Notes: generated by a model from the letters alone, not told the origin. A stretch of 64,000 bases of DNA from an uncultured Verrucomicrobiota bacterium (GCA_903848465.1 CAINGK010000128.1:6270-70269); one strand, 5' to 3'; counted from the first letter of the stretch, positions 1 through 20,457 are shown. Program-made: numbers and translations.

Positions 1-1324
1 CATGGGCATCAACAAGCCAGACGTGCGCTATGTCATCCATGGCGATCTGCCGAAGAACATTGAGGGCTACTACCAAGAGACAGGCCGTGCGGGCCGCGAC
101 AGCCTGCCGAGCGAGTGCGTGCTGCTTTACTCGCGTGGCGATCTGGTGCGGAACCTGAAGTTCCTCGATGAAATGACTGATGCACAGGCTGCGGAAGTAG
201 CCGCGCAGCAGATGCGCCTGATGGCGGATTTTGCCGAAGGCACTGAGTGCCGCCGAGTGGCGCTGCTGGACTATTTCGGAGAGCAGTGGCCGGGTGACAA
301 CTGCGGCGGTTGCGACATCTGCTTGCAACCGCGTGAGATTTGGGATGCCACCACGCAGACCCAAAAGCTACTGAGCTGCATCTTCCGCATCCGGCAGAAG
401 AGCGGCTTCAGCACCGGACTGAACCATGTCGTGGAAGTACTCGCCGGCGCGAACACGGAGAAGATCCGCAAATGGTATCATGATCAGCTCAGCACCTACG
501 GCATCGGCAAAGACACGCCGCGTGAGGAATGGGCTGCGCTGGGGCGGCAGCTCATTCGCCTTGGGCACATTGAAGCCACGGCTGATTCATTTCAGACGCT
601 CAGCCTGTCCAAGAAGGGGCTGGCCACGCTGATGAATCGCACGCAGGTCATGCTCACACGTGTGCCTGTGGCGGTGAAGGCAGGAACGAGTACGGCGAAG
701 GTGGCCAAGGTGGGCAGCATTGCCTGTGATGAGGCGCTGTTCGAGGAACTGCGCGCGCTGCGCAAAAAGCTGGCTGATGAGCGCGAGGTGCCGCCGTACG
801 TCGTGTTTGGAGATACCAGTCTGCGCCACATGTGCCGTCAATACCCGCGCACAGAGCGCCATTTCCTAGCTATACCCGGTGTCGGTAGCCAGAAGCTTGC
901 TGACTACGGCGTGGCTTTCATGGGCGCGATCACGCAGTGGCTTGAAACGCATGAGGCGCAGACGTTTGCCGAAGAGGCCCCGCCGCCACCGCCACCGCCG
1001 CCCAAGATGAAGAGCGAGGGCGGGCTCACTGGCACGATGCTGGAAACGCTGCGCCTACACCGGCAAGGGCACAGCGCGGAAAAGATCGCCTCACTGCGCA
1101 GCCTCGCCAGCAGCACCATCCACAATCACCTTGCACAGGCCATTCAGCAGAACGAGCTGAAGGCCAACGCGCGCGACTACTTCACTGCCGAAGAGGAGGA
1201 CGAACTCCGCGCGGCAGCCGCTGAGCATGGCCTGGAAAGTCTTGGCAAGCTCAAGGAGGCGCTTGGAAACCGCTACGACTATCCGGTGCTGCATTACTTC
1301 CGCGCGTTTGAAACACGGAAGTAA
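1..1324 (+). CDS. recQ: ATP-dependent DNA helicase RecQ, C-terminal ~440 aa (5' end outside window)
   Basis: ORF is open to the window edge. Helicase motif VI YYQETGRAGRD. RecQ Zn-binding Cys cluster CRRVALLDYFGE...CGGCDIC. HRDC-like segment FEELRALRKKLADEREVPPYVVFGDTSL...IPGVGSQK. A P8 linker (980-1003) is followed by an extra HTH-like C-terminal segment. Confidence 0.9.
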   Translation, partial: MGINKPDVRYVIHGDLPKNIEGYYQETGRAGRDSLPSECVLLYSRGDLVRNLKFLDEMTDAQAAEVAAQQMRLMADFAEGTECRRVALLDYFGEQWPGDNCGGCDICLQPREIWDATTQTQKLLSCIFRIRQKSGFSTGLNHVVEVLAGANTEKIRKWYHDQLSTYGIGKDTPREEWAALGRQLIRLGHIEATADSFQTLSLSKKGLATLMNRTQVMLTRVPVAVKAGTSTAKVAKVGSIACDEALFEELRALRKKLADEREVPPYVVFGDTSLRHMCRQYPRTERHFLAIPGVGSQKLADYGVAFMGAITQWLETHEAQTFAEEAPPPPPPPPKMKSEGGLTGTMLETLRLHRQGHSAEKIASLRSLASSTIHNHLAQAIQQNELKANARDYFTAEEEDELRAAAAEHGLESLGKLKEALGNRYDYPVLHYFRAFETRK

Positions 1325-3825: not shown

Positions 3826-4265
3826 AAACACTGCTCACCACCCTGATCTGCCTCGTCAGCCTCGTCTCATTTGCGGAAGAAGCACAACTTGCCGCTGTGC
3901 AGGCGGCGGATGATGCGCGCGTCGCTGCGATGAAATCGCCGGACCGTGATAAGCTGAGCGCGATTTTCTCGGACGAGCTCCGCTATTGCCACTCCACTGG
4001 TGTGGTGGACACCAAGAGTTCGTTCATTGATGTGCTCATTAAAGGCACGACGAAGTATCAGGCGATCGACTATGTGGAGCGCAACTTCACTTTTCCGGCA
4101 CCGGGCATCGCGCTGATGACTGGTAGCGCGAAGCTGAAGATCGGCACTCCAACAGGCACCATCGAACCTACGCTGGCTTTTCTGGCGGTGTGGCGTCTGG
4201 AGAGCGGGCAGTGGCGCTTTCTGGCGTGGCAGTCGTGCAAGCTGGCAGCGCCACCTGCGAAGTAG
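3822..4265 (+). CDS. SnoaL-like / DUF4440 (NTF2-fold) secreted protein
   Basis: ATGA overlap with the upstream gene. Signal peptide present. DKLSAIFSDELRYCHSTG ... WRLESGQWRFLAWQS is typical of DUF4440-type NTF2-like domains. Confidence 0.55.
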   Translation: MKTLLTTLICLVSLVSFAEEAQLAAVQAADDARVAAMKSPDRDKLSAIFSDELRYCHSTGVVDTKSSFIDVLIKGTTKYQAIDYVERNFTFPAPGIALMTGSAKLKIGTPTGTIEPTLAFLAVWRLESGQWRFLAWQSCKLAAPPAK

Positions 4266-4487
4266 CATTCACGCATGAAGGCAAAGATCACTCTCGGCTT
4301 CCTCCTATAAGGGCTGCGGGTGGGTTTGCCGTTGAGCCGCACAAGGCTGCGCTGGGTCCCGGAACCTGCTGAAGCAGGTACTACAATACATGCGGTGTGG
4401 ACTGCGGTGTGAATGGCACGTGCCATGCGCTGAGAGACGGGCGGGCTGTCGCCACACCCATCCTACGTTCCGGATTGGGACAACGCT

Positions 4488-5996
4488 TTATTTCACGAAG
4501 TCGGTGAAGCCTGCCTCGGTGCGTTTGAGTTCGGCTTTCATGGCTGTGCGAAGCTGGGTGATGCGATCTGCGTGGGAGGCTTCGCCGATGAGGTTCTTCA
4601 ATTCTTCGGGGTCATTTTTCAGATCGTAGAGTTCTTCGCCGGACTTGCCGTCGAGGTAGTGGATGAGCTTGAACTGATCCTGAACGACGGCGCTGTACAA
4701 GGGCACGCCCTGATCATTCTTCTGCTCCGCGCCGGTGAGGATGGTGTGGCTGACTTTCGCGCCATACTCGTTGCCCATGTGCTCGTAGAAGCAGGCGTGC
4801 GGCCATGCGGTGCCGGGCTTTTCAAGCAGGGGCATGAGATCGCGGCCATGCGTCTGCCACGGCACTTTCACGCCGCTGATGGAGAGAAAGGTGGCGGCGA
4901 GATCGGGGGCGTTTACCGATGCGTTGCACACTTTGCCGGTGGGGAAGCGTGACGGCATGCTGATGATGAGGGGCGAGCGGTAGTTCGCGTCATACGGCGC
5001 CAGCTTGGTGCGGAAGCCGTGCTCGCCCATGGAGAAGCCCTGATCAGCGGTGTAGATGATGAGGGTGTTGTCGTACTGGCCGGATTCCTTGAGCGCGGCG
5101 ATGAGCTGGCCGACGCCTTCGTCGATGGCGGGCACGCATTCATTGACCTGACGCACCCAGTCGTCGAAGCGCTTGCCTTTTTTGCTCTCGCCAAAGGCTT
5201 CGCCGCCCTTTCCAGCCATGGGATGGCCGTCGGGGCCTTTCGTCCATGCCTGCTTTTTATTGAGGTAATCGGGTTTGCCTTCGCGAGGTGGGAAGATGTC
5301 TGCGGGCACCGGCACGGCGGCATCCTTGTAGCTGCCTTTGTGGCGTTTGGCCGGGGTGGAGGGACCGTGAACGCTGCCGTAGCAGACCCAGAGGTACCAG
5401 GGCTTTGCGGCATCGCGGTTTTTGCCACGAATGTAATCGAGCGACCACTGGGTGTAGTTGTCGGCGGGATAGCCTTCGATGGACTGCTCCTTGCCATCGA
5501 CGCTCATGATCTGCGTTTCGTAGTAAGCGCCGGCGTTTTCGGGATGCAGCGGGCGGTTCCAGACGATTTGATGATCCCAATCGCGGCCCCAGCCGGTGTC
5601 TGTGCCGGTGTGCCACTTGCCAATCTGCGCGGTGTGATAGCCCTGTTTGCGCATTTCTGCGGGGATGAAGGGGCACTGCTTCGGATCGTAGGTGCTGCCG
5701 GGGTATTTGCCTTCCATGGACATGGACTCGATGCCGTGTGGAAAACGCCCGGTCAGCATGGTGGCACGCGAGGGCATGCACCAGGAACCGAGATAGGCGG
5801 CATGAAAGCGCACGCCATTTTTTGCCAGTGCATCAATGTTCGGGGTCTTCACCCAGGGCCAGGAGCCGGGGTAACAGCCCACGGTTTTGGTGGACTGGTC
5901 ATCGGCGTAGATGAAGAGGATGTTGGGGCGCTTTGCCTCTGCCGCGAGAACTTGTAACGCGAAGGTGCAGAGGAGGAGAGAGACGAGTGCTTTCAT
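4488..5996 (-). CDS. Cys-type sulfatase (arylsulfatase A family)
   Basis: Formylglycine signature CMPSRATMLTGR. NILFIYADDQ metal-binding start. Signal peptide begins at the internal ATG (MKALVSLLLCTFALQVLAAEA). The ORF-track start at 6038 is an alternative. Confidence 0.85.
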   Translation of the reverse strand: MKALVSLLLCTFALQVLAAEAKRPNILFIYADDQSTKTVGCYPGSWPWVKTPNIDALAKNGVRFHAAYLGSWCMPSRATMLTGRFPHGIESMSMEGKYPGSTYDPKQCPFIPAEMRKQGYHTAQIGKWHTGTDTGWGRDWDHQIVWNRPLHPENAGAYYETQIMSVDGKEQSIEGYPADNYTQWSLDYIRGKNRDAAKPWYLWVCYGSVHGPSTPAKRHKGSYKDAAVPVPADIFPPREGKPDYLNKKQAWTKGPDGHPMAGKGGEAFGESKKGKRFDDWVRQVNECVPAIDEGVGQLIAALKESGQYDNTLIIYTADQGFSMGEHGFRTKLAPYDANYRSPLIISMPSRFPTGKVCNASVNAPDLAATFLSISGVKVPWQTHGRDLMPLLEKPGTAWPHACFYEHMGNEYGAKVSHTILTGAEQKNDQGVPLYSAVVQDQFKLIHYLDGKSGEELYDLKNDPEELKNLIGEASHADRITQLRTAMKAELKRTEAGFTDFVK

Positions 5997-5997
5997 G

Positions 5998-6041
5998 CTG
6001 CGCGATAAACGTCGCGCAGCAGGGCTTTGTAGCCGCAAAGC
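5998..6041 (-). terminator. two adjacent stem-loops between the NTPase gene stop and the sulfatase start
   Basis: Plus-strand CTGCGCGA-taaacg-TCGCGCAG (5998-6019, 8-bp stem) and GCTTTG-tagccg-CAAAGC (6024-6041, 6-bp stem). The first ends 2 nt before the sulfatase ATG. No clear U-tract, so the role (terminator, attenuator or 5'-UTR structure) is unresolved. Confidence 0.25.
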
Positions 6042-6052
6042 TTTTGAATCTT

Positions 6053-8368
6053 CTAGGCGGCGGTGCCTTGCGAAGGCGGCGGCAGCTTGGCCATGGGCGG
6101 ACGTGCTACACCTGTGGGCGGCTTCATCATGGGTGGTGCAGGCGGTTTCGCGAGGGGCTTTGAAACCGGTGCTGAAGGTGGTTTGGCGAGAGGTTTGGTC
6201 GTGCCCGGAAAAGGGGGCGGCGGCGGGGACTTGGCACTAGGCAGATCTGGCGGCGGCGCCACGGGCAAAGGAGGTGGATTCACGCCCGGTACCACTGGCG
6301 GCAGAACACCGGGGGCTAACGGCGGTTTGGCCACGGACGCCGTCGGCGGCCGGATGATCGACGAGAGCACGGAAGACTGCGGATGCGCGGGCGAAGCCTG
6401 CTTCGGCGCATGCACCTTTTGGATCATTTCCCACAGCCTGAGACCACGCAAAAGCGGGTGCGCCCGCAAAGCGGCGAGCACGTTGTCCTTCGTCGCTGGC
6501 GGCTCGCTGACGAGATGATCGTAGGAACCTTCGCGCTGAGCGGCGAGCATGCTGCCGACTGCTGCAAGAATGGCAGCTTCAGAAGCCGGGATGTGATGGA
6601 AGGTGTTTTTCGATTTGAAGCTGTTGAGGAGTTCCATCGTGAGCTGGCCGGAGACCGGAGCGATGTCATTGCGCAGCAGCAGCGTATCGCCAGGGGCTTC
6701 CTTGATGCGCTCCAGCACGGCGATGAGACTGCCACGCATGGCATTGCTGGTGACGATTCGCACCTTGCCGCCACCCCATTCAAACCAGCGGTCGGAACCG
6801 TCGAAGTTATCGTAGGTTTTGCGAATGTCACCTTCACTGACGGTGACTGGGGGTGCGACCATCAGCTCGATGAGATCGCGCGACCGTTCGCCGAGATCAA
6901 CGGCATTGAGCGAATTGGTATCGGCCTTGGCCGCAGCCACGGCCTGCTGCAGCAGCGCATCCACCTTCTCCGCCAAGCTTGCTTTGGAATTGGGGGCAGT
7001 CAGCGCGGTTGGGACTGGCAGCGGCGGTGCTGACTGCGTGCCAGTGGGCACTGGAATGACAGCGACTGTTGGCTGCTCTTTTGCCACTTCAGACACAGCG
7101 ACCGGTGCTGCTGGGGCAACTACTGGCGGCGATGCTGGCAACGGTGGCGGCACGGTCTTCGCGGCTACCACCGCGACGACTTCAGGTGGCAGCACTGCGG
7201 GTATGGTGCGCAGATCATACATCTCAGCAGCGGCAGCCAGCAGATGACGTGGGAAGATCGCGCCACCGGCGGTGAGCCGGGCCATATCCTCAACCTGCAG
7301 CGGATGGATGGCCGAAGTGATGCCGTCTTTCTGGCGCAGTTCGACGAGTGCAGGGATTTCGAGTCGGCAATTGAGCAAGAGGCGCTTCTGCTCGTTGGCG
7401 ATGGGCAGCATGTCGATGACCGGCAGGCGGAATCCCAGCGGGGCATTCGAGTCCGGCACACCGACACGCCCGCGCAAGGCCTGCGAGAGGGCCGCATCCC
7501 AGGCGGTGAAACGTTCAACGACGAGGCCAATCAGCACGACCCAGTTTTGACTTTGATCGATCAGCGCAAAGAGCAGCCGCTGCATCTCATCCAACTGTGG
7601 CTGAGTGACCGCGAGGTCGAGCTGGTCGAGAACTAAGACGACTGGCGAACCCGCCTGCGCGGCCAGTTTGCCAAAAAGCTGGATGACGCCCCCCATCTCT
7701 GAGCGAGCGAGTGGCTCATTGACACCGAGGAACTTGAGTTCGTTTTCCGTCAGGTAGGAAGCCCCTGAAAGCCACTGCGCAGCGAGATGTTCTTTGTCAT
7801 CACGCAGGACGTTGAGCAAGCAGCGCAGCACGCTGCGCGGCACCATCGGATGTTCGGCTTCCAGCAGTTGCACCGCCTGATGGATCATCTCCTTGCGGGT
7901 TTCGAGGTCGATCTCCGCCCAGGCCTCGTGGAGTTGCGGAAAGGTAAAATCCTGCTCTACCACCGGTTTGAGAAGCGCATACGCGAGCAGGCGCAGTTGG
8001 CTGTAGGGTGTCTCCCGGCCTTCTTTGCTGCGTGATGGATGCCGCAGACTGCCGACGAACCGTGTGAGGATGAAGTTTTCCAATGCCTCGGGCTGGAGCG
8101 GCGGATTCGGCGCATAGGCATAAAAGATGCTGTCCGCGCACTCACGCCGTAGCCGCGAAAAGAGATGCGATTTGCCCGATCCACCCGCGCCCCGCACAAA
8201 ACGCACCTGGCTGCGGTGCTGAGCACGCACCTGATCCACCACGATACGCAGGGAACCAAACGGCACGGAGTGAATGTAGGGCACGTCCACGAACGAGGCG
8301 GCGTTCCACAGATCATTCTCACCCACACTCGTGGATGTGAAGGGATTCAGGTCAGCATAAGAAGACAT
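6053..8368 (-). CDS. P-loop NTPase of unassigned family with Pro-rich linker and polyproline C-terminal tail
   Basis: Walker A GAGGSGKS at 8168-8191. Walker-B-like VVLVLDQLD at ~7616-7642. Pro/Ala/Val-rich linker at ~6992-7201. Proline tail at ~6056-6349 with KPLAKPP x2 and PPPPPFP. The start is taken at M22 (MSSYADLNPF); the ORF-track start at 8431 is an alternative. Confidence 0.6.
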   Translation of the reverse strand: MSSYADLNPFTSTSVGENDLWNAASFVDVPYIHSVPFGSLRIVVDQVRAQHRSQVRFVRGAGGSGKSHLFSRLRRECADSIFYAYAPNPPLQPEALENFILTRFVGSLRHPSRSKEGRETPYSQLRLLAYALLKPVVEQDFTFPQLHEAWAEIDLETRKEMIHQAVQLLEAEHPMVPRSVLRCLLNVLRDDKEHLAAQWLSGASYLTENELKFLGVNEPLARSEMGGVIQLFGKLAAQAGSPVVLVLDQLDLAVTQPQLDEMQRLLFALIDQSQNWVVLIGLVVERFTAWDAALSQALRGRVGVPDSNAPLGFRLPVIDMLPIANEQKRLLLNCRLEIPALVELRQKDGITSAIHPLQVEDMARLTAGGAIFPRHLLAAAAEMYDLRTIPAVLPPEVVAVVAAKTVPPPLPASPPVVAPAAPVAVSEVAKEQPTVAVIPVPTGTQSAPPLPVPTALTAPNSKASLAEKVDALLQQAVAAAKADTNSLNAVDLGERSRDLIELMVAPPVTVSEGDIRKTYDNFDGSDRWFEWGGGKVRIVTSNAMRGSLIAVLERIKEAPGDTLLLRNDIAPVSGQLTMELLNSFKSKNTFHHIPASEAAILAAVGSMLAAQREGSYDHLVSEPPATKDNVLAALRAHPLLRGLRLWEMIQKVHAPKQASPAHPQSSVLSSIIRPPTASVAKPPLAPGVLPPVVPGVNPPPLPVAPPPDLPSAKSPPPPPFPGTTKPLAKPPSAPVSKPLAKPPAPPMMKPPTGVARPPMAKLPPPSQGTAA

Positions 8369-8412
8369 GGTCTTGGGAATCTGTTCAGTGTTCGGGAGGA
8401 AGGAGCGCTGGA

Positions 8413-9267
8413 TCAGGAAATCCAGCACCAAGAGTAACCGGGCGGACCGAGAGACATCGGAACAAGCAGAGCACGTTCATGCTCGGGAAGGTCTTGCGGC
8501 CTTTCGCAAGGTTCTAACAGGAGTTGCCCATGATTGTAAAGCGTCTCAATCAAAATTCGGAAAACCTGACTATCAGCCACACCGCCGCGTTCTGTGGCCC
8601 AAGCCTGATACCGAGCAAAAGTCTGGGGAATGGGAATCATCATCGTCGAGGAGCGGATGCGATCCAGATCATACCAGGCACGCAATTCGGCCGCTTCAGG
8701 AACAATGACGAATTCGACGGGCGGTGCAGGAGGCTCCGCGTCCAGCCAAGCGATCAGTTCATCCCATGACGCAGGCTGAGTGCGGACGCTGTTCGCGGTC
8801 TGGAGGATTTTTTGCAAGGCACGGCGCTGCACGGCGCTAAGTAGTTCTGAAGGCTGCGGCTTGCGCGCATACACCAACCGTTTGCCCTCCGGCAGGACAT
8901 ACGCCGCACCTGCGGCGACGAGCTGGCTGAGAGCAGCCTCAAAGAGAGGCTGGAGTCCCACAGGCAGCTTTGCCTTCAGTTTCACGGCCTGCTGCTCTTT
9001 TTTGGCCGAATGCACGCCATGCTTTAAGATCGCGGCAGCGGCAGATTCAGGGGTATGCGGGGTGAATAGCGACTGGGGTTTGCTGCGGGTGCCTGCGGCA
9101 ATGCGATTGAGCTCACCTGCTGCTGACAACGTTTCCAACACTGCGGCCACTGCTTTTGGCGTGGCTGACTTCCCGACTGCTGGTTTGACGAGTTTGGCGA
9201 TGTCTCCCGCTTTAAGCGGCAGTTCACTGCGGCTTAAAGCATCCTGAATGGCTTGTTCGAGAGTCAT
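8413..9267 (-). CDS. hypothetical soluble protein (284 aa), upstream partner of the P-loop NTPase
   Basis: ATG verified at 9265-9267. Coding-like composition. No signal peptide or TM segment and no motif I can name. Lies 5 nt downstream of the preceding hydrolase gene's stop. Confidence 0.55.
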   Translation of the reverse strand: MTLEQAIQDALSRSELPLKAGDIAKLVKPAVGKSATPKAVAAVLETLSAAGELNRIAAGTRSKPQSLFTPHTPESAAAAILKHGVHSAKKEQQAVKLKAKLPVGLQPLFEAALSQLVAAGAAYVLPEGKRLVYARKPQPSELLSAVQRRALQKILQTANSVRTQPASWDELIAWLDAEPPAPPVEFVIVPEAAELRAWYDLDRIRSSTMMIPIPQTFARYQAWATERGGVADSQVFRILIETLYNHGQLLLEPCERPQDLPEHERALLVPMSLGPPGYSWCWIS

Positions 9268-9272
9268 GGTAG

Positions 9273-10253
9273 TCAGCGGCGAAGGGTTTCTATTTGGCGG
9301 TCCAGCCAGTGCGTCACATCTTTCACCACTTCCTCGCGCTGCACATCATGCAGCAGCAGATGGTAGGAACGGGTGTACCACAGCAGTTTTTTGTCCCGGC
9401 TGCGGATCTGAGCGAAAAGGGCCTGGATCTGATCGGCGGAAGACAGCACATCATTCGGAGATGCAACGAAGAGCACCGGCATTTTCAAGCGATGGGCAGA
9501 ATCAGTGTTGTCATCCAGCATGCTGCCGATGGTTGAGAGCAGGCGCAGCGAGAAGGCGCTGACATGATGTGGTGTGATGGCCATCTGACCGCCGTGCGTG
9601 GAAGTTGAAGTGACTTTGATCTTCGATTCATCCACCCCCGCCAGTTCGCCGAGCGTGTAACGTGAGCGTGGAGAAAGCTTGGCCGCAGTTTCGAGCAGGA
9701 AACGCTGAAAACCGCTCAGCGTCATGCGCAGTCCGGCCACAGGAGATGCCAGAATGATGCCGTCGGGATCAGACCAATTTCCGAGCAAATCCGCCGCTGT
9801 GTGCAGGGCGATGAGGCTGCCCAGACTCTCCCCGTACCAAAACACCGGCGTCTTGGGATGCCTGCGCTTCACCAGCGCGTGAAACGTCGCTAGATCACGC
9901 TGCCAAGCCGTTGCTCCCGAGATGTCACCACGCTCAGCCACCACGGGATCATTCCCTTGGCCACGCAAATCGTACGCATAGACCGCATAACCGCGCAGCG
10001 GCAGTTGTTCGCCCAGATACCAGAAATCCGACTTCGCACCGCTCAGACCATGCACCGCGATCACCACACCGTGCGGCTTCACGCCGGCAGGAACCGGCCA
10101 AACTTTGCAGGGCATGGTTTTGCCGTCGTAGCTTACCCATTCCTCGGCACGGAGAACGCCACGACCTGCGGCCATTTTTTTCACCGAGGCACACCCGGAC
10201 AGGACGGTTAAAACCGTCAGCATAAGAAGGCGCTGAATGATTGATGGATGCAT
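9273..10253 (-). CDS. lipoprotein alpha/beta hydrolase (lysophospholipase / monoacylglycerol-lipase-like)
   Basis: Lipobox LTVLSGC. HGLSG...DLRGQG region. Nucleophile elbow GESLGS. C-terminal YHLLLHD. Confidence 0.75.
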   Translation of the reverse strand: MHPSIIQRLLMLTVLTVLSGCASVKKMAAGRGVLRAEEWVSYDGKTMPCKVWPVPAGVKPHGVVIAVHGLSGAKSDFWYLGEQLPLRGYAVYAYDLRGQGNDPVVAERGDISGATAWQRDLATFHALVKRRHPKTPVFWYGESLGSLIALHTAADLLGNWSDPDGIILASPVAGLRMTLSGFQRFLLETAAKLSPRSRYTLGELAGVDESKIKVTSTSTHGGQMAITPHHVSAFSLRLLSTIGSMLDDNTDSAHRLKMPVLFVASPNDVLSSADQIQALFAQIRSRDKKLLWYTRSYHLLLHDVQREEVVKDVTHWLDRQIETLRR

Positions 10254-10256
10254 GAG

Positions 10257-11036
10257 TCAACCAAGAACAGCCAGCGCTGACTCCACGAATTCCACCTGCA
10301 CCCGCACTCTTTTGTCGAGATCAAACTCCGAAGGTGATTCAAACGTTATAGTCACGGGGCAGCCCCGCACATGCAGTTCAATGGCTTCAGGCATGCCGGG
10401 CAGGTGCGTTGGCAGAGTACGACGCCGGATCACACCGCGGCTCGCGCGCTGGCCTTCGATGTTTTTGCGCGGATCAGGCGCGATCACGCGTGCGCAGCGG
10501 TCGATGATTTCATGACCGACCGTTTGCTGCGCGTGGTTGAGCTCATAGAGGTAAGTCCCCTGCGCGTCGTAATCTTCATGCAGACAGAGCCCAAAGCGCA
10601 TCGGTCGTCCGGTGATCCACCTCTGCCACGGCCCGCAGATCTCATCAGCCGAATCGTGAAAGCGACGATTGATGTCGAAGCCGCGATGATCGGCCCGTGT
10701 ATTGAGCCTGAGTCCCACAGGATTAAGGCAGGGCGCGATCAAAAATGACCCGCGTTTCAGCTCGTTTACATGCTTCTCCGCCCAGGTGAGCAGGCCCCAG
10801 GCTGAACCCGCCTCATCGCCATGCACGCCGGTGGAAAGATAGACTGCGGGGTCTCCTGACTGTGCAGCCGCTGATTCGAGTACGATCACGGGCATGTCCC
10901 CCACCTTGCACAAGGTCTTGACCCGACAGCCAGCGGAGCGTGCGAGCACGCGCCAGCGCTGGATGAGATGCTGTGCGTCATGCGCACGATGGTTAGGGAG
11001 CAGCTTCACTGCTTGAGAATGGCTGGTCCTGCTCAT
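10257..11036 (-). CDS. M14-family zinc carboxypeptidase-like protein (succinylglutamate desuccinylase/aspartoacylase-type)
   Basis: HxxE zinc motif in STGVHGDEAGS. NPVG, DINRRF, and a third zinc ligand in CLHEDYD. Confidence 0.7.
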   Translation of the reverse strand: MSRTSHSQAVKLLPNHRAHDAQHLIQRWRVLARSAGCRVKTLCKVGDMPVIVLESAAAQSGDPAVYLSTGVHGDEAGSAWGLLTWAEKHVNELKRGSFLIAPCLNPVGLRLNTRADHRGFDINRRFHDSADEICGPWQRWITGRPMRFGLCLHEDYDAQGTYLYELNHAQQTVGHEIIDRCARVIAPDPRKNIEGQRASRGVIRRRTLPTHLPGMPEAIELHVRGCPVTITFESPSEFDLDKRVRVQVEFVESALAVLG

Positions 11037-11063
11037 TCGTCATTCTGAATTCATCATTCATTC
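11034..11063. repeat. heptamer-periodic CATTCGTCATTC-type short repeat spanning a gene junction
   Basis: cattcgtcattctgaattcatcattcattc. It matches the reverse complement of 22558-22591 at 24 of the 26 aligned positions, including an identical 14-mer CAGAATGACGAATG. It covers the M14 start codon and the sulfatase stop codon. Confidence 0.6.
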
Positions 11064-12479
11064 CTTTTTCTTCTTCCCCTTCCCTTGCTTTACCAGTGGG
11101 GCCTCTTTTGTACGTCCTTCATTTCTTGCCACTTCTTCCGGCTCTGGAATCCGACCCTGATCGTGTGTTTGCTCGATCCAGGCATTCAGCACAGAACTCA
11201 AATGCTCCCGTGCGGCCCGGTGCTCCGGCAGGTTCGACTTAGCGAGGTTGTTGATCTCATAGGGGTCCTGCTGCAGATCGTACAGTTCTTCCGCTGGCAT
11301 CGTAGGAGCTGCCAGCACGGCCTGCACAGGCGTCAGTTTCTCCTGTGCGGCCAGGTCTTTGATCAGATTCCACACGGGATACTGCTTCTCCTTGTACTCG
11401 TTGTGCTGAAGGAAGGGGCGGTCGGGGGTGAAGTTATGGATGTAGCGATAGCGTGCATCACGCACGGTGCGGAAGCGGAACACCGTCATGTCGCAGCGAT
11501 CCCGGGCACCGAAGACGTACTCGCGTGGGGGTTCTGCGTTGGCCCCCATGAAAACCTGGCCCTGCATGCCCTGTGGTTTGGCTATGCCGGCCCATGCAAG
11601 CGAGGTGGCGGTCAGGTCGATGGACATGAGCAGGCGGTCGCTGACTTTGCCGGCTTCATAACCAGTGGGTGCGGTGATGCTGGAAGGCCAGCTCATGATG
11701 AGCGGTGTGTTCAACCCCTCCTCGTAGCAGAACTGCTTGGCGCGGACGTGTGCTGCGCCGTGATCGCCCATGAAGCAGATGACGGTGTTTTCCATGAGGC
11801 CGTCGCGCTGGAGGAGTTCCATCACCTTGCCGATTTTCCGATCCAGCTCTGTGGCGGCATCGAGATACTGCGCCATGTCTTTGCGGGTGACTTCATGATC
11901 GGGGTAGTAGGGAGGAATCTCCACCTTGGCCGGGTCTGCATGGGGTGGCGCGTGGAAGGTGCGGTGGGTCTCCTGGAAATTGAGCTGAGCGTAAAACGGC
12001 TGGTGCTGCTTTAAGTCATCCCAGTTGGACGAATCAAACGGCTTGGCGGGCTCCTGGAAGTTCCAGTCGGTCTTGCCGGTGCCTTTGAAGCCTGCTTCTG
12101 GCGGCATCTCCTTCACATTGGCGGTGAAGTAACCGGCATCACGCATGCGTTCGCTGATCACCTTCACGCCTTCGGGAAGGGTGAAGCCGTCATCGCGATG
12201 GGAGCGGTGGTTGTGCGCGCCGATGGTGGTCTGGTACATCCCGGTGTTGAATGCCGAGCGGCTGGCCGAGCAGACGGGTGCCGTGGTGTAGTAGCGGGTG
12301 AAGCGCATGCCTTTCGCAGCCAGTGCGTCCAGCACGGGGGAGGACACTTCTTTGGTGCCGTAGCAGCCGAGATGGGGACCGAAATCTTCGGCGATGAGCC
12401 AGAGGATGTTGGGGCGTTTTTCTTCGGCGTGAAGAGTGACGGCCAAGGCAAGGCTGAATAAGATGAGAAAACGGACCAT
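11058..12479 (-). CDS. Cys-type sulfatase
   Basis: Signature CSASRSAFNTGM (C-x-A-x-R variant). NILWLIAEDFG. Signal peptide begins at the internal ATG (MVRFLILFSLALAVTLHA). The ORF-track start at 12551 is an alternative. Confidence 0.85.
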   Translation of the reverse strand: MVRFLILFSLALAVTLHAEEKRPNILWLIAEDFGPHLGCYGTKEVSSPVLDALAAKGMRFTRYYTTAPVCSASRSAFNTGMYQTTIGAHNHRSHRDDGFTLPEGVKVISERMRDAGYFTANVKEMPPEAGFKGTGKTDWNFQEPAKPFDSSNWDDLKQHQPFYAQLNFQETHRTFHAPPHADPAKVEIPPYYPDHEVTRKDMAQYLDAATELDRKIGKVMELLQRDGLMENTVICFMGDHGAAHVRAKQFCYEEGLNTPLIMSWPSSITAPTGYEAGKVSDRLLMSIDLTATSLAWAGIAKPQGMQGQVFMGANAEPPREYVFGARDRCDMTVFRFRTVRDARYRYIHNFTPDRPFLQHNEYKEKQYPVWNLIKDLAAQEKLTPVQAVLAAPTMPAEELYDLQQDPYEINNLAKSNLPEHRAAREHLSSVLNAWIEQTHDQGRIPEPEEVARNEGRTKEAPLVKQGKGKKKKE

Positions 12480-12679
12480 GTGTGGAGCATGATCGAGACG
12501 ACTGCCCTGAGGCAAGCACGGATTTTTCCATCCTGACCTAGCACCTGCCATGACAGCTACGTTTGCGGCCAGATCATTTTAACCGATATGATAGTGCCGA
12601 AATTCGCATGCTAGAGGCTGGCGCACATCGCTCCTTGTAATCCTCTGCATAACTTCATTTACAAGCGACGGCCCAGGAG

Positions 12680-12699
12680 CCGCACAGGGGACTGTGCGG
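12680..12699 (-). terminator. stem-loop downstream of the 1409-aa gene
   Basis: CCGCACAG-ggga-CTGTGCGG (8-bp stem), ~87 nt after the stop at 12786. No U-tract. Confidence 0.25.
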
Positions 12700-12785
12700 A
12701 CCACTTTGCTGACGCCTTCGCGATGCCCTTTGGATATTCCCGCCATTGGGATGTCCATGTGATCATGCTCCAGCGCTTCTTTGCA

Positions 12786-15700
12786 TCACTCCCGTTTGCT
12801 CAGCAAATACTTGAGAAGTTCCAGAGACTTGCGCTCCGGCATGGATTCGAGCAAGCCGGGTGGCATGAGCGAGACGGGCATTTTCTGGCGGCTTTTGAGG
12901 TCGGCTTTGGAGATGATGACGGACTCGGTGACGGTGCGTGCCGTGATGGCGGTGTCGGTTTCCTGCTCGATGACGCCGGAGATGACGGTGCCGTCTTTTT
13001 TGGTGAGGACGTGAAGCTGGAAATTGTCTCCGACGACGGCATTGGGATCGATGATGTTTTCGAGGAAGTAATCGAGGCCGTTGCGCCAGGAGCCTGCGAG
13101 ATCGGGGCCGAGCTTGCCACCGACACCGCCCATGGCATGGCAGACGGCGCAGACTTGCTTGAAGGTTTCCTCGCCTGCTTTGCCATTGAAGGCCCAGAGA
13201 GGAGCGGACTGATACGCCTTCTTGAGTTTGGCGATGCTGGCTTTGGCGGCTTCGCTGGAGTCGTTCACTTTGCCCCAGGTGGCATCGAGGAGGGTGTTGA
13301 TCTCCGCGTGGTTCAGATTGCGCATCTGGCGGATTTGCAGCGAGCTGAGGTATTTTTTCTCGAAGGTGCCGGCCTTGACGGCAGCGAGGAGTGGCAGAGC
13401 AAGTTCGGCGCGGCTGGTGAGGGCTCCCAAGGCAGCGCTGCGGTCGGTGTCATTGAGTTTGGTGAAACGGGCCATCAGAGCTCTGGCTATTGCTGGATCG
13501 GCGGAGCGGGAGAGAAGCGGGATGACCGCGCTGGTGAAGTCGGGTTGATCGAGCAGTTTGGCGAAGATGGGTGTCGCTTCTGTGTCGCTGACACGCTTCA
13601 GCAGATCGAAGGCGCTGCGGCGCTGGGGAAGCGGCGTTGTTTCATCCGCCAAGGCGCTGCGCATCTTTGCCAGAACGGTCTTGTCGCCAAACAGAGCGGA
13701 GAGTTGATCTGCGGTTGTGCCGGGAAATTTGGCCTGCAGTTGGGGCCATGTTTTGGGCATGGCCGCTTTCGCCTCGTCCTTCATGCCGAAGGCGAGGAGT
13801 TTCAAATCGCGTTCGGTTTGAATGGTGGGGATCAAAGCTTCGCGACCTGCGGGAGTCGTGGCGGCGAACCAGCGGATGGAATCGGCGAGGGATGGGAGAG
13901 GAGTTTTTGCTGCGAGTGCGAGGCCGCGGGGCCAGTCTTCTGCCACGACTCGGGCGAGGCCGAACCAGATCATCTTGGGCAGGAAGCGGTCGTCTTTGTC
14001 CTCGGCGTGCATGGCGAGTGCGGAGGCGACTTCCCAAACGGTTTTTGTGTCCAGCTTTGGCAAGGCTGAGGCGAGTGCGAGGCGGACGGTGGGAGAGGGG
14101 TCGGTTTGGGCGAGCTTGAGGAGGGTGGCGGAGGTGAGCTTGGGTTTGCCGGTTTCTTCGGTGTCGAGCTGTATGGCCCAGGAACGGACGATGTCGTTTT
14201 TATCAGTGACGGCGGTTTCCAAAAAGCGGCCACTCAGTTTGTCGATGACATGAAGCGACCATAAGGATTGCAGAGGTTTCGTGTGAAACTGTGTTTCGAG
14301 CCTAGAGGCATCTACTTGCTCCAGCGTGGCTTTCTCCTGCAACAACCTTCGTGCAATGCGAGCAGCCCAATCATTGGCGTCCCCGATCATGCCCTCGAGA
14401 TCTTGATCCTTGAGCTTGGATATATCCACCTTCACCGGTTTGTATGTCTTCTTCCATGAGATGCGGTAGATGCGGCCGTTGGTACGGTCCCATTTTTCGT
14501 CTTCGGGATTGTGGCAGTGCTGGGTGTCGGTCCAGTCGATGACATAGACGGCACCGTCGGGGCCGGTTTGGAGATCGACGGGGATGTAGTCGGGGGCGGG
14601 GCTGTAGAGGAGATCGTAGCCGGCGTGGAAGGTCTCATAGCCGCTGCCAGTACGGACCATGTGCTGCTGATTGATCTGATGGCCGTGGAGGTTGTGCGTG
14701 AAGAGGTGATCGCGATAGATTGCGGGCCAGTTGTTGCCGTTATAGATCAGGGTGCCGACGTGTGAGTGGCCGCCATAGACGGCGGTGGTGCCGGGCTTGC
14801 CTGCGCCGCCTTCACCGCTGTCATAGCGCGCAGAAGCGGGGAGGTAGTTTTGCAGATCAGGCGCGAAGTCCGGGGCGGTGGCGGAGATGAAGGGGGCGTA
14901 TTTGCTGTTGGCCTGATTCCAGAAGTGGCCGTTGCGGATGGCATTCGTCGTGCCGCCTTTGCCCCAGAAGCTGCGGCAGTGGGTCATGAAGAAATGGCCG
15001 TTGCTGTTGTAGTCGAGGCCCCACTGATTGCTGCCACCGCTGCAGAAGATTTCGAATTCATGCCGCACGGGATGATAACGCCAGACCCCTGCATTCAGTG
15101 TGATGCGCTTCTCGTCCGGTGTGCCGGGTTTGCCGATGAGTGATTGGGTGAAGACGCCTTGATTGCCATAGAGCCAGCCGTCCGGGCCCCAGATGAAGCT
15201 GTTGAGGGTTTCGTGTGTGTCTTGATAGCCCCAGCCGTCGAGGAGGGCGTAGGCGGTGAAGTTGAGGCCGGGGACTTTCGAATAGGACTGATAGGTCTTA
15301 TGGGATGTATCCAAGGCATCGGCGCGGTCATCGTGATCCGCGTCTGGAATGAACATCAAATAGGGTGCGGCACCGACCCACACGCCGCCGAAGCCGACCT
15401 CGATGCCGCTGACGAGATTCAGTCCTTCGCAGAATACTTTCTTGGTTTCAAAGGAGCCGTCGCCGTTTGTGTCTTCGAAGATGCTGATGCGGTCTTTCCC
15501 CTGCCCTTCGGGCTGGCGGTTTGGATAACTGAAGGCCTCCGCCACCCACATGCGGCCGCGTTCATCGAAGCAGAAGGCGATGGGCTGCCGCACATCGGGC
15601 TCGGCGGCGATGAGTTCCACCTGAAAGCCGTCCTGCAGTTTCATGGCTGCGACGAGCTTCTGGGCTGCGTCGTTTTTCACGCTGGTTGGTTTGGCTGGAT

Positions 15701-16979
15701 TTGGCAGCAGGTGCCAGAGGACGGGGCTTTCGTTATCGCGCTTCGATCGATCATTGCTGATGCTCAGAGCAGCGGCGGCGAAGGTCGGCTTTTGATCGTG
15801 GAAGACGAAGTCGTCGAAATTGACATGACCCCAGCCAGTTTTGGATTGATCGACGATGCGGATGAAGATGCGTTTGCCGACGGCGCTTTCCAGATTCACG
15901 GCGACGCGCTGCATGTTTTCCTGCTGAGCGGCGCTGCTGCTTTGAATGACTTTGCCGGTGGCTTCCTCGACGATTTCGACTCGCTCGGTGTTTGCATCGG
16001 CTGCGGCACCGAGCAGGAAGCTGGCCCATGGGTGGGTGGCGACGAAGCTCGTCGAAGTGAGGGTTCCGGTGCCTTTGTCGCCGTTGCGCTCGTAACCGCC
16101 GAGCCAGAACTTGCCTGCGTGCTGGGAGTTGCCGCGTTTGCGGATCGCTACTGTATCGCCTTCGACGGGTTGTTTTTCCCAGGCGTCGCCTTCGGCTTTC
16201 CAGCCTGCGAGGGTGCCAGTTTCGAAGCCGAGGTTGAGTTCGGCGGGCGGTGAGATGGAGGGGACGTCGGTGGTGCGGGCAGGAGTGCCCGCATCGCTGC
16301 GCTGCGGTATCGCGGTTTTGCCGAGATGTGCGAGCTGGATGTTGCGGAACTGCACTTTGGCCGGACCTGGGCCGCTGTGGAGCTGAAAGGCGATTTTGCC
16401 GCTCCATTCGGCGGCTTTGGCTTCGTGATCATCGAGGACGCTCATGAGGACGTCATTGACGCGCACCTCCACGTGGGAGGCGGTGGCGGTGATCTGGTAT
16501 TTGTTCCAGTCGTTGGCTTTAATGACGGAGGTGAGACTCTTCGGCTCGGCAAACACATCTGCCCAGCGGCGGCCGTCTGGTGCGATGCTCACGCGTGAGC
16601 CGCGCTCCACGAGCAGGGCGCGGCCGTGCTCGTCGTAGATGCGGCCCAGCCACACGGCGCCTTGATCGAGATCTGCCTGATAGCCGCTGGCGTGACCGTC
16701 CGGGTTCTGTTGGCAACGATACTGGATGCCGGAGTTAGCACTGGGGCCGCCGGTGATGCGGAACTCCACGGTGAGATCGAAGTCATGGACCTCGCCGTCC
16801 CAGAAGATCCACTCGTTGCCTTTGAGCTGCTGATTTGCAGGGATTTCACCCGTGATCGCGCCATCCTCCACGCGCCAGTGCTCTGCTTTGCCGGACCAAT
16901 GTTCGAGTGACTTGCCATCGAAAATCGAGTCAGCGTATAGCGGCAGCGTGGCGAACAGGAGAACGCAGAGAGATTTCAT
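12786..16979 (-). CDS. large secreted multidomain protein: DUF1080 + LamG-like + dehydrogenase-like beta-propeller + HEAT repeats + C-terminal c-type cytochrome (PVC-type heme-binding CxxCH protein)
   Basis: Signal peptide starts at the ATG at 16979 (MKSLCVLLFATLPLYA). DUF1080-like FDGKSLEHWSG..WRVEDGAITGE. FQVELIAAEPDVRQPIAFCFDERGRMWVAE matches the membrane-bound-dehydrogenase-type domain. C-terminal heme motif CAVCHAMGG. Confidence 0.8.
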   Translation of the reverse strand: MKSLCVLLFATLPLYADSIFDGKSLEHWSGKAEHWRVEDGAITGEIPANQQLKGNEWIFWDGEVHDFDLTVEFRITGGPSANSGIQYRCQQNPDGHASGYQADLDQGAVWLGRIYDEHGRALLVERGSRVSIAPDGRRWADVFAEPKSLTSVIKANDWNKYQITATASHVEVRVNDVLMSVLDDHEAKAAEWSGKIAFQLHSGPGPAKVQFRNIQLAHLGKTAIPQRSDAGTPARTTDVPSISPPAELNLGFETGTLAGWKAEGDAWEKQPVEGDTVAIRKRGNSQHAGKFWLGGYERNGDKGTGTLTSTSFVATHPWASFLLGAAADANTERVEIVEEATGKVIQSSSAAQQENMQRVAVNLESAVGKRIFIRIVDQSKTGWGHVNFDDFVFHDQKPTFAAAALSISNDRSKRDNESPVLWHLLPNPAKPTSVKNDAAQKLVAAMKLQDGFQVELIAAEPDVRQPIAFCFDERGRMWVAEAFSYPNRQPEGQGKDRISIFEDTNGDGSFETKKVFCEGLNLVSGIEVGFGGVWVGAAPYLMFIPDADHDDRADALDTSHKTYQSYSKVPGLNFTAYALLDGWGYQDTHETLNSFIWGPDGWLYGNQGVFTQSLIGKPGTPDEKRITLNAGVWRYHPVRHEFEIFCSGGSNQWGLDYNSNGHFFMTHCRSFWGKGGTTNAIRNGHFWNQANSKYAPFISATAPDFAPDLQNYLPASARYDSGEGGAGKPGTTAVYGGHSHVGTLIYNGNNWPAIYRDHLFTHNLHGHQINQQHMVRTGSGYETFHAGYDLLYSPAPDYIPVDLQTGPDGAVYVIDWTDTQHCHNPEDEKWDRTNGRIYRISWKKTYKPVKVDISKLKDQDLEGMIGDANDWAARIARRLLQEKATLEQVDASRLETQFHTKPLQSLWSLHVIDKLSGRFLETAVTDKNDIVRSWAIQLDTEETGKPKLTSATLLKLAQTDPSPTVRLALASALPKLDTKTVWEVASALAMHAEDKDDRFLPKMIWFGLARVVAEDWPRGLALAAKTPLPSLADSIRWFAATTPAGREALIPTIQTERDLKLLAFGMKDEAKAAMPKTWPQLQAKFPGTTADQLSALFGDKTVLAKMRSALADETTPLPQRRSAFDLLKRVSDTEATPIFAKLLDQPDFTSAVIPLLSRSADPAIARALMARFTKLNDTDRSAALGALTSRAELALPLLAAVKAGTFEKKYLSSLQIRQMRNLNHAEINTLLDATWGKVNDSSEAAKASIAKLKKAYQSAPLWAFNGKAGEETFKQVCAVCHAMGGVGGKLGPDLAGSWRNGLDYFLENIIDPNAVVGDNFQLHVLTKKDGTVISGVIEQETDTAITARTVTESVIISKADLKSRQKMPVSLMPPGLLESMPERKSLELLKYLLSKRE

Positions 16980-17075
16980 GGCGGTGGGAGCAGGTTGGGG
17001 ACTCTGCTTATACAACCACCGGCGTCAGCATGATACAGACATGATTTTGGCCGAATCGGACATGAGGCCGCTGTG

Positions 17076-17933
17076 TCACTTCTTCAGCACGCCGACAACG
17101 AATGCATCCAAGGCTTTCGTCGCGGGATCGTCGGGCAGACCGAGGTCGTCATTGAGCTTGACGTGACTGGTATCTTTGGCACCGAAGACGGTGGTGGGCA
17201 CTCCGGCTTCCTTCAGGGCATTGCCAAGGCGGGCAGCTTGTGCGCTGGTATCTGGATGGGCGGCCACGTGCAGGATGAGGAAAGGAGGGATGCCTTTGCC
17301 TTTGGCCACATGGGTGACAGCGGAGAAGTCGATATGCTTTTCTGGAGTACCGCCAAACTTTTCGCGGTGGCCGTTCACCCGTGGTGGCAGATGATGGACG
17401 CGGAGGCGTGTCTCCGCTGTCTCGATGATGGCGGGCACGTCGTAGGTGTCGCCATCGACTGGGACGCAGCCGATGAGGCAGTCAAAAGAAGCGCCTTCGG
17501 TCTTCAGGTAACGATCATCTGTGCAAAGCAGCGCCGCGAGCTGTGCCCCGGCCGAGTGGCCGCCCACGAGCACGCGCTTGGGGTCGCCGCCATATTCGGC
17601 GATGTGTTTTTCCATCCAGCCGAAGGCTTTGGCGACATCACGAGTGAGCGTGCCCATGTCCACTTCGGGCAGCAGGCGATAATTGGTGGAGACAACCATA
17701 AAGCCTTTGCCCATGAACCACTGCGGTTTGAGCTTCACATCCGTCTTGTCGCCCTGCGACCAACCACCGCCGTGAATCCAGAATACGACGGGCAGATTTT
17801 TGGCGTTCGCAGGTGCGTAGATGTCGAGCACGTGGCGTGCGTGGCCGTTTTCGACGTAGGGGATGTTGGACTTCACGCTCTGAGCGAACGTGCTTGCTGC
17901 AAAAGCGAGCGTGGCGAGGAGGATGAGTTTCAT
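17076..17933 (-). CDS. secreted carboxylesterase/lipase, alpha/beta hydrolase (HGGG, family IV-like)
   Basis: Signal peptide starts at the ATG at 17933 ([17 protein letters not shown]). Oxyanion motif WIHGGGW. Nucleophile elbow GGHSAGA. Confidence 0.75.
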
Positions 17934-17949
17934 GGTTGGGGAGTGGTTG

Positions 17950-18705
17950 CTATTCTTTCTTGGCAGGCAGATGCTTTGCGAGATCGCGCATGGCGATGAC
18001 CTTGCAACCTTCGTCCTTGAGGTGCTGCATGTAGGTCTCAAATTTGGCCGGGTCAGTGTTCACATGCGGGTGCTTGATGTCTGGCACACCGTGGAAAGTC
18101 ATCACGGCGATCTTGCCATCCTTTGCCTGAGCCACGGCAGCCTTGAACTGCTCCAGAGTGCTGGCCGGCTTGCCATCAAAGGCCTGCGGCAGAGTGAGTG
18201 GATCATCCATGGCCGGGTCGTAGGCTCTGGCACCGCCAGCGCGGGCAAACTGGTAGCCGCGCTCGCGCAGGAGCTTCACTGCGGCCTCGCTGGTCTGATA
18301 GCCGGGATAGCAAAAGCTCACTGGCTTGGGGATGCCGTATTTCGCGCACTGCTGCTCGATGAACTCCACATCCTCCGCGAGTTGCTCGGGCTTTTGTTTG
18401 GCCACGCCTGCGTGTTTGCGGGTATGATTGCCGATTTCTAAGCCGTCTGCGTCGAGGGCTTTGATCTGCTCCCAGGTCATGTAGTGCTCCTTGTCCACGA
18501 GGAACTCGAAGCCTTCGGTGATGAAGAAGGTCGCGCCGAAGCCATGCTTTTTCAGCAGCGGTGCCACGAAGGTGGCGTGGCTGGCCACGGAGTCATCAAA
18601 GGTGAGGACCACGAGACGCTCTGGGGCTGGTTCGACGGCGAGCGAGCGCCATGCCAAGGTGACGGTGAGAAGGAGTGCAACGATGGCAATGTGGACAGGC
18701 TTCAT
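17950..18705 (-). CDS. polysaccharide deacetylase (CE4 / NodB family)
   Basis: Signal peptide present. LTFDDS (motif 1). GNHTRKH (motif 2-like). Typical spacing. Confidence 0.75.
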
Positions 18706-18711
18706 GGGGGA

Positions 18712-19482: not shown

Positions 19483-19484
19483 GC

Positions 19485-20363: not shown

Positions 20364-20457
20364 GGTGGTTGAGTGTGGGATTGGATACAGCATGCAAACG
20401 CAGCGCGTTCAGCATCCTTTCTCTCTGCTTCACTCAACGTTCAGAATGCGACGCCCA

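Follow-up and report, generated by a model that had tools for sequence, protein, structure and literature searches.

A conserved Orc/Cdc6-like ATPase and its winged-helix partner in Verrucomicrobiaceae, a probable effector-less derivative of a three-gene nuclease-translocase cassette

Two adjacent genes on the minus strand of a 64,000-nucleotide (nt) stretch of DNA from an uncultured Verrucomicrobiota bacterium (GCA_903848465.1, CAINGK010000128.1:6270-70269; the whole stretch is called the window below) encode a P-loop ATPase and a smaller protein, referred to here as the partner. Together they make up the DNA-recognition and ATPase half of a cassette that has three genes and occurs across phyla; the pair is probably a domesticated form that has lost its effector. 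An initial annotation had presented it as an orphan, self-contained two-gene system. This view was not retained, as the pair makes up two-thirds of the cassette and the third gene is absent here. The longer open reading frame (ORF) of the ATPase covers 6053..8431 and comprises 792 amino acids (aa) when counted from a TTG codon. The equivalent of M22 is the first residue in all 26 aligned homologues (consensus MSxYAALNPF), and the ATG at 8368 is therefore taken as the start, which gives a protein of 771 aa. The stop codon of the partner lies at 8413-8415, leaving a gap of 44 nt to this ATG; with the longer TTG ORF, the two genes would overlap by 19 nt. The ORFs, sizes and spacings reported initially are exact to the base, and the coordinates of both Walker motifs were reproduced by arithmetic on the translation. 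Judged by eye only, neither translation has a hydrophobic N-terminal signal, in line with the earlier statement that signal peptides are missing.

The AlphaFold2 (AF2) model of the ATPase, built on 27 orthologues, consists of four segments: a folded N-terminal module (residues ~30-390), a linker, a folded α/β domain (the C-domain) and a proline-rich tail (Table 1). The linker, globular region and proline tail read earlier from the sequence are thus recovered as disordered, folded and disordered parts, with a predicted local distance difference test (pLDDT) score of about 35-45 in the two disordered ones. Foldseek matches to the whole model were dominated by the AAA+ module. The best match was Cdc6/Orc1 of S. 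solfataricus (2qby_B, probability 1.0, E 1e-3), with a template modelling (TM) score of about 0.4 to the target. Further matches included human, fly and yeast ORC1/ORC4, Cdc6, TnsC, RdrA and Apaf-1.

Conservation across phyla was read from an alignment of 50 ATPases (A3). In the N-terminal extension, P9 is invariant, and N8, F10, W21, V31 and I34 are at least 90% conserved (P0248 numbering). Three glycines and the lysine of Walker A are invariant, and its serine is not among the positions conserved to at least 90%. In Walker B, the conserved aspartate is followed by glutamine instead of the usual catalytic glutamate. The aspartate is invariant and the glutamine at least 90% conserved, which makes D-Q a family-wide feature. 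In AAA+ proteins, an E-to-Q change in Walker B classically permits ATP binding and blocks hydrolysis. On sequence grounds, the D-Q motif points to a switch with slow hydrolysis and not to a motor.

The linker varies among close orthologues from ~50-70 aa up to ~350 aa (P0088, a protein of 1007 aa), with both adjoining domains conserved, and this suggests a length-tolerant spacer. The C-domain, also conserved in the three-gene relatives, has the element order α-α-β-β-β-α-β-α-β-α in the AF2 model and occupies the position of the 'inactive REase' (restriction endonuclease) domain reported for Orc/CDC6 ATPases of this class. In 18 diverse sequences, it contains no D...(D/E)xK motif, and just one arginine (R566) is invariant. 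A Pfam scan of 18 isolated C-domains returned no match. Since hhalign detected no similarity between the C-domain and the active PD-(D/E)xK domains of the third genes, the 'inactive REase' label cannot be confirmed by sequence. The modelled element order and the missing catalytic motif are nevertheless consistent with an inactive REase. The proline tail stands in the place of a short Pro linker and a C-terminal winged helix-turn-helix (wHTH) in the relatives. Within its terminal motif RPP..KLPPPS, L762, P763 and P764 are invariant, R756, P757, P765 and S766 are at least 90% conserved, and the rest of the tail is variable. The motif may be a docking site that replaces the lost wHTH. An interpretation of the proline regions as cytoskeletal or scaffolding elements was rejected because composition was its sole support.

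As expected from the initial annotation, Pfam, NCBIfam and PADLOC models name neither protein. In Pfam, the ATPase has a 30-residue P-loop match to BrxC_BrxD (PF10923, 25.6 bits, residues 49-78), and matches below threshold to AAA_16 and AAA_22. The NCBIfam scores were 18.6 bits for BrxD (NF033438), whose cutoff is 350, and 18.5 bits for Sll1717, whose cutoff is 75; PADLOC-DB v2.0.0 gave a marginal BrxD match at E 0.002. A PDB sequence-profile search with ATPase alignment A1 was empty. A literature search for DUF2791 returned nothing helpful.

The AF2 model of the partner (mean pLDDT 82) is a multi-winged-helix protein with three winged-helix (WH)-like units. Its top Foldseek matches in the PDB are tandem-WH proteins: the SelB C-terminus, AlkX/YcaQ, TFIIIC, ESCRT-II and ScpB. 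At the sequence level, Pfam, NCBIfam and PADLOC hold no significant family for the partner but faint winged-helix signals (SelB-wing_2; AbiEi N-terminal, PADLOC E 7e-4), and the PDB sequence-profile search with partner alignment A2 was empty. This alignment has 59 invariant columns, which cluster in the C-terminal WH-like domain. The last ~30 residues (LLEPCERPQDLP...PMSLGPPGYSWCW) are almost invariant, yet their pLDDT is 45-57. This combination of invariance and low confidence suggests a tail that folds only when bound to an interaction partner.

Table 1 Features of the two-gene locus, with dN/dS (pairwise ratio of nonsynonymous to synonymous substitution rates, window against five orthologous loci)
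Feature	Position (nt)	Strand	Residues	Remarks	dN/dS
ATPase gene	6053..8368	(-)		771 aa + stop; start set by 27-orthologue alignment	
N-terminal extension	8273..8356	(-)		family-wide motifs LNPF, W21, DVP.IH	
Orc1/Cdc6-like AAA+ module (α/β base + helical lid)	7199..8272	(-)		Foldseek, weak hidden Markov model (HMM) matches	0.06-0.12
Walker A GAGGSGKS	8168..8191	(-)	60-67		
Walker B VVLVLDQLD	7616..7642	(-)	243-251		
Pro/Ala/Val-rich linker, disordered	6983..7198	(-)	391-462	pLDDT 32-37	0.19-0.44 (highest among segments)
Folded α/β domain (C-domain)	6404..6982	(-)	463-655	SLAEKVDALL...LWEMIQKVH; pLDDT 80-92	0.08-0.14
Proline-rich tail, disordered	6056..6403	(-)	656-771	pLDDT about 40	0.14-0.31
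Terminal motif RPPMAKLPPPS	6071..6103	(-)	756-766	candidate short linear docking motif	
Partner gene	8413..9267	(-)		284 aa + stop	0.16-0.21
Partner WH1		(-)	1-70	AF2 model, Foldseek	
Partner WH2		(-)	73-135	AF2 model, Foldseek	
Partner helical connector		(-)	139-176	then short Pro-rich loop; AF2 model	
Partner C-terminal WH-like domain	8416..8694	(-)	192-284	tail LLEPCERPQDLPEHERALLVPMSLGPPGYSWCW almost invariant	
Neighbouring enzymes					0.07-0.13

The wider family was delimited by an exhaustive profile search with the ATPase, which retrieved 500 representative proteins at E≤1e-3. Many of these have ~650-750 aa and match the ATPase module and the C-domain. The relatives share the architecture of the window ATPase without its long proline segments and carry an extra, wHTH-like C-terminal domain of ~70 aa (RWL..ERL...YP...IW). 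Context look-ups revealed a recurrent, translationally coupled array of a small gene, the ATPase gene and a nuclease-translocase gene, the DNA translocase being of the hexameric type. The first gene encodes 200-310 aa and has no Pfam match; PADLOC returned nothing for the relatives' small proteins and ATPases. The third encodes 600-860 aa, with an N-terminal PD-(D/E)xK (PDDEXK_1/Cas4-like) domain followed either by a RuvB-like AAA+ module with the RuvB C-terminal winged helix or by FtsKα and FtsK/SpoIIIE domains. In the third-gene alignment, PD...EYK, Walker A and Walker B are all invariant, and the effector is therefore predicted to be active. The REase-RuvB-like version occurs in Vicinamibacteria, Acidobacteriota, a Verrucomicrobiales metagenome-assembled genome (MAG) and others, the REase-FtsK version in cyanobacterial-type loci and on a Pseudanabaena plasmid.

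In a census of 80 metagenomic loci plus context look-ups, a nuclease and/or translocase gene lies directly downstream of the ATPase gene, or is fused to it, in 45 of the 54 non-Verrucomicrobiaceae loci with room. An isolate case is the megaplasmid pPSE7367.01 of Pseudanabaena sp. PCC 7367 (WP_015146210; WP_015146209, 'P-loop NTPase fold protein'; WP_083883959, 'DNA translocase FtsK'), which was the one clear case in a plasmid search. No phage record with the ATPase family was found in a search of such records. The window pair is tied to this cassette on both sides. The partner is homologous to the first genes of two such cassettes, one from Vicinamibacteria (hhalign probability 99.2, E 1e-19) and one from the Verrucomicrobiales MAG L131 (BLASTP E 1e-16). 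L131 holds a complete RuvB-type cassette, whose ATPase is 36% identical to that of the window (E 2e-75). All outgroups nearest to the window ATPase (E 1e-85 to 1e-47) are of the REase-RuvB type, and the FtsK-type relatives are far more distant.

Several observations were made on the cassettes themselves. REase-RuvB-like third genes lie at L045:8099-9907, L047:8171-9976, L049:8058-9842, L131:7001-8812, L134:10001-11854 and L136:3076-4902. The REase-RuvB-like family is rare (~62 clusters in 5.8 billion proteins) and was the cassette third gene in every locus examined. Its members are named 'Holliday junction DNA helicase RuvB' or 'AAA family ATPase' by JGI/NCBI, which looks like a misannotation. 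Some FtsK-type relatives have two to three tandem ATPase paralogues (L076:519-8040, L087:104-7989, L120:5965-10169, L123:1222-5320), and in other loci the ATPase is fused to an FtsK domain in a polypeptide of 900-1030 aa (L101:3125-6133, L125:115-2838, L128:473-3553). In the RuvB-type locus L135 (7947-9999), two genes of 123 aa and 552 aa make up the ATPase, with transposases (rve, DDE_Tnp_1) and a phage-type integrase around them. It has the look of a frameshifted copy in a mobile region, unlike the intact and stable Verrucomicrobiaceae copies. Toxin-antitoxin-type genes are found a few kb from three cassettes (L045:10174-11126, PIN_10 and DUF433; L131:2358-2818, YoeB; L136:13262-13925, PIN and RHH), and they may hint at defence-island-like surroundings in other phyla.

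The FtsK form of the cassette is already known computationally. Orc/CDC6-coupled HerA/FtsK capture systems were predicted by comparative genomics only (Rakesh, Aravind & Krishnan, Nucleic Acids Res 2024; PMC10853773, section 22). Their neighbourhoods include an active REase and, in a subset, a fast-evolving protein with two to four wHTH domains. In the proposal made there, the Orc/CDC6 component localises the apparatus on DNA, and the translocase pumps invader DNA to the nuclease (PMC10853773). The term 'RuvB' is absent from that paper, and a literature search found no other paper on the RuvB-type cassette. The initial claim of an undescribed system needs correcting in this respect; the RuvB form appears to be unreported.

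The effector is missing from the lineage of the window. Searched by tblastn with five third-gene proteins, neither the 64-kb window nor the ±10 kb around each of 44 orthologous loci gave a match, and the third gene is also absent from 10 Verrucomicrobiaceae-type metagenomic loci. An HMM of the relatives' C-terminal wHTH, built from 18 C-termini, found nothing at E<0.1 in 27 Verrucomicrobiaceae ATPases or in the partners, and nothing in any reading frame of window positions 4001-12000. On the basis of the tblastn, census and HMM results, both the nuclease-translocase gene and the C-terminal wHTH of the ATPase are considered absent throughout the lineage. None of the ~62 REase-RuvB-like clusters has a Prosthecobacter label, which many ATPases do carry; with only about 1/4 of the database proteins named, this is no more than suggestive.

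The two remaining genes are conserved together. More than 140 homologue clusters were found for each protein, and the named ones bear the label Prosthecobacter or Verrucomicrobia/-les/-ceae; in several NCBI records, the locus tags of the pair are adjacent. A scan of species-representative genomes yielded 44 loci, one per assembly, of which 42 have Verrucomicrobiaceae-type titles and two a doubtful Akkermansia label. The co-conservation that the initial annotation proposed to check is complete: the partner directly adjoins the ATPase gene on its upstream side in all 43 genome loci with upstream sequence. The two oddly labelled loci (L014, L036) come from lake-metagenome MAGs named 'Akkermansia muciniphila'. 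Their pair is 73-80% identical to the Prosthecobacter type and has the same flanking genes, and the bins are probably mislabelled. In the Prosthecobacter clade, each locus with room has the AstE-like gene, the α/β hydrolase gene, the partner and the ATPase in collinear order; for the outer genes (giant protein, two sulfatases), this holds in most loci. A divergent Verrucomicrobiaceae clade (about 48-50% identity for the ATPase, about 39-40% for the partner) keeps the pair between unrelated flanks. One such locus has MlaEFD and an AraC regulator upstream and a sulfatase downstream, another GH77 upstream and a giant PA14/DUF1800 protein downstream. Since the pair persists among unrelated flanks, it is regarded as a conserved unit.

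A library scan bore out the initial remark that hydrolases and sulfatases flank the pair. On the same strand, the pair is flanked by two sulfatases, an S33-type α/β hydrolase and an AstE/M14-like enzyme, and farther away lie esterases, a polysaccharide deacetylase, a GDSL lipase, a giant protein with a 3-keto-disaccharide-hydrolase domain, and RecQ. Window positions 4488-20393 (-) hold polysaccharide-degradation genes, predicted to encode secreted proteins or lipoproteins, in a long, co-directional and tightly packed array. It includes the two sulfatases, the AstE/M14-like and S33 enzymes, BD-FAE esterases, the deacetylase, the GDSL lipase and a protein of 1409 aa with 3-keto-disaccharide-hydrolase, DUF7133 and HEAT domains. 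The cytoplasmic ATPase pair is embedded in this array with gaps of 3-44 nt and is an odd operon companion. At 2-1324 (+), the window begins inside a RecQ helicase gene whose RQC, HRDC and HTH_40 C-terminal domains are visible, and this gene is kept downstream of the block in several Prosthecobacter loci.

The tight, co-directional packing with the AstE-like, α/β-hydrolase and sulfatase genes raises the idea that the pair belongs to the polysaccharide-degradation operon, e.g., as its regulator, with a wHTH transcription factor and a STAND/MalT-like ATPase as signal integrator. Indeed, AAA_16-type ATPases include MalT/LuxR-type regulators. A promoter and terminator scan of the locus was uninformative: its counts equalled the shuffle expectation, and none of the internal promoters or terminators was convincing. 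The block keeps its synteny throughout Prosthecobacter. Nevertheless, this explanation is improbable. The divergent clade maintains the pair beside genes unrelated to the operon, the relatives in other phyla pair with a nuclease-translocase and not with catabolic genes, and no ligand-sensor domain was identified.

Selection was assessed from the pairwise comparisons in Table 1; values for the downstream sulfatase were disregarded because of frame artefacts in three of the five comparisons. The dS (0.6-1.9) is comparable between the pair and its neighbours, and the ORFs of the pair are intact in all loci examined. By these sequence measures, both genes are functional, evolve under purifying selection and are inherited together with their neighbours. 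The >140 clusters per protein and the purifying selection also rule out a chance pair. A decaying, functionless relic of a defence cassette would account for the lost effector gene and DNA-binding domain and for the expanded low-complexity proline segments. It is strongly disfavoured and very improbable, given the intact ORFs, dN/dS of 0.06-0.21 at such dS, conservation among Verrucomicrobiaceae clades down to identities of about 48% for the ATPase and 39% for the partner, and invariant motifs in both proteins, tail included.

The genomic context bears on a possible defence role. No mobile-element or defence genes were seen in the Verrucomicrobiaceae contexts, and the window itself shows no mobile or defence-type neighbourhood but sulfatases, esterases, a deacetylase and RecQ. 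The variable genomic context that the initial annotation proposed to look for was not found; the pair sits in a syntenic block of polysaccharide-degradation genes and is inherited with it. It might still act as an anti-phage or anti-plasmid system, either through an effector encoded elsewhere or without nucleolysis, e.g., by sequestering invader DNA in an ATP-dependent way. The ancestry in a cassette with hallmark conflict-system domains, the faster evolution of the partner relative to the neighbouring enzymes (Table 1) and the transposases, integrases or toxin-antitoxin genes that adjoin some relatives speak for such an activity. It is rather unlikely all the same, as the ±10 kb around the pair are free of nuclease and translocase genes at all 55 Verrucomicrobiaceae loci, the wHTH, a constant companion of the three-gene form, was lost in parallel, and the Prosthecobacter label is missing from the REase-RuvB-like clusters. 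Moreover, a fixed syntenic position, one copy per assembly and neighbour-like dS are atypical of defence genes. Of the conflict or defence role suggested initially, the descent from a conflict-type system is supported, but an active defence locus is not.

The favoured explanation, to which we assign a probability of roughly 60%, is that the pair is a domesticated, effector-less variant of the cassette of Orc/Cdc6 ATPase, multi-wHTH protein and nuclease-translocase, a predicted anti-invader system. A domesticated derivative is preferred over an active, undescribed defence system because the third gene is absent, the context is syntenic and the pair is inherited with its block. In Verrucomicrobiaceae, the third gene and the C-terminal wHTH would have been lost and the proline-rich segments gained. 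The two remaining genes would then have been transmitted vertically under purifying selection inside a stable chromosomal block. The partner would bind DNA by its winged helices, and the ATPase, with its intact Walker A, would bind ATP and work as a slow-hydrolysing switch. Both may assemble on DNA in the fashion of Orc/Cdc6. With the nuclease-translocase missing, DNA cleavage would be impossible as an output. Instead, an unlinked host factor is probably recruited by the conserved proline motif, and the module would serve a cellular DNA-associated role rather than classical restriction.

Several points weigh against this explanation. The Walker B glutamine is no proof of lost hydrolysis, and the later aspartate in DQLD could compensate. 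The REase fold of the C-domain finds no sequence support from hhalign, PDB profiles (A4) or Pfam. The link to the systems of PMC10853773 rests on matching their description, i.e., the domain list and order. An unlinked third gene elsewhere in Prosthecobacter genomes is possible, as the search spanned the flanks and a partly named database. Finally, the contact between ATPase and partner is putative, and the present function of the pair is one that we infer.

A more far-reaching version of the domestication model is offered tentatively and is doubtful at present: an exapted immune sensor half would serve a housekeeping function, marking or organising chromosomal DNA and recruiting a host factor via the polyproline motif. 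Separately, and as tentatively, the RuvB version may represent an unreported 'motor swap', which, if true, would bring AAA+ RuvB-type rings under the HerA/FtsK 'capture' principle. Motor swap and effector loss are the new details of this work. The census supports a three-gene unit whose genes are now labelled 'hypothetical', 'P-loop NTPase', 'RuvB' or 'FtsK' by pipelines. A translocase module interchangeable between RuvB-like AAA+ and FtsK bears on how such systems engage DNA. Furthermore, a natural 'effector-deleted' derivative that selection has kept throughout a bacterial family offers a tractable way to study nuclease-free Orc/Cdc6 sensors, and the pair may exemplify the domestication of defence genes in bacteria.

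Of the known systems, the HerA/FtsK capture systems (PMC10853773) are among the closest to the family. The third gene of the FtsK-type relatives has the same composition of active REase, FtsKα and HerA/FtsK, the window ATPase is an Orc/CDC6-type AAA+ protein whose Walker A is intact, and the separate multi-wHTH protein has its counterpart in the partner with three WH-like units. In contrast, the window locus lacks genes for an REase and for HerA/FtsK, and its ATPase carries proline-rich segments instead of a C-terminal wHTH. The pair also lies in a stable, non-mobile context, and its nearest relatives use a RuvB-like AAA+ motor.

Bacteriophage exclusion (BREX) systems likewise place an ATPase (BrxC/PglY, BrxD) beside a small DNA-binding protein with several (w)HTH domains. 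A recent survey describes BrxC-type ATPases with a triad of wHTH, α+β and wHTH domains, and tripartite HTH/wHTH partners of the BrxA/DUF4007 type (BREX survey 2026; PMC12839542). This likeness explains the weak BrxC_BrxD and BrxD matches of the window ATPase. Unlike in BREX, the Pfam match is restricted to the P-loop, and the partner matches neither DUF4007 nor BrxA. An assignment as BREX BrxD was rejected, since the scores are far below threshold and no PglZ, PglX, methyltransferase or BrxL is encoded nearby.

Archaeal and eukaryotic Orc1/Cdc6 initiators match the AAA+ base and lid best in structure, and their winged-helix DNA binding would be supplied in trans by the partner in the window. 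However, the TM score is only about 0.4, Walker B reads D-Q instead of D-E, a C-terminal WH is missing in cis, and nothing ties the pair to an origin or to replication genes. As for DndFGH/SspFGH, the window has none of their components, and neither the ATPase nor the partner matches SspF/G/H or DndF/G/H. The likeness to these systems lies in the third gene of the FtsK-type relatives, whose FtsK domain matches the SspH C-terminus (PADLOC E 3e-66), and in the multi-wHTH recognition subunit (DndG, SspB), which is a common theme.

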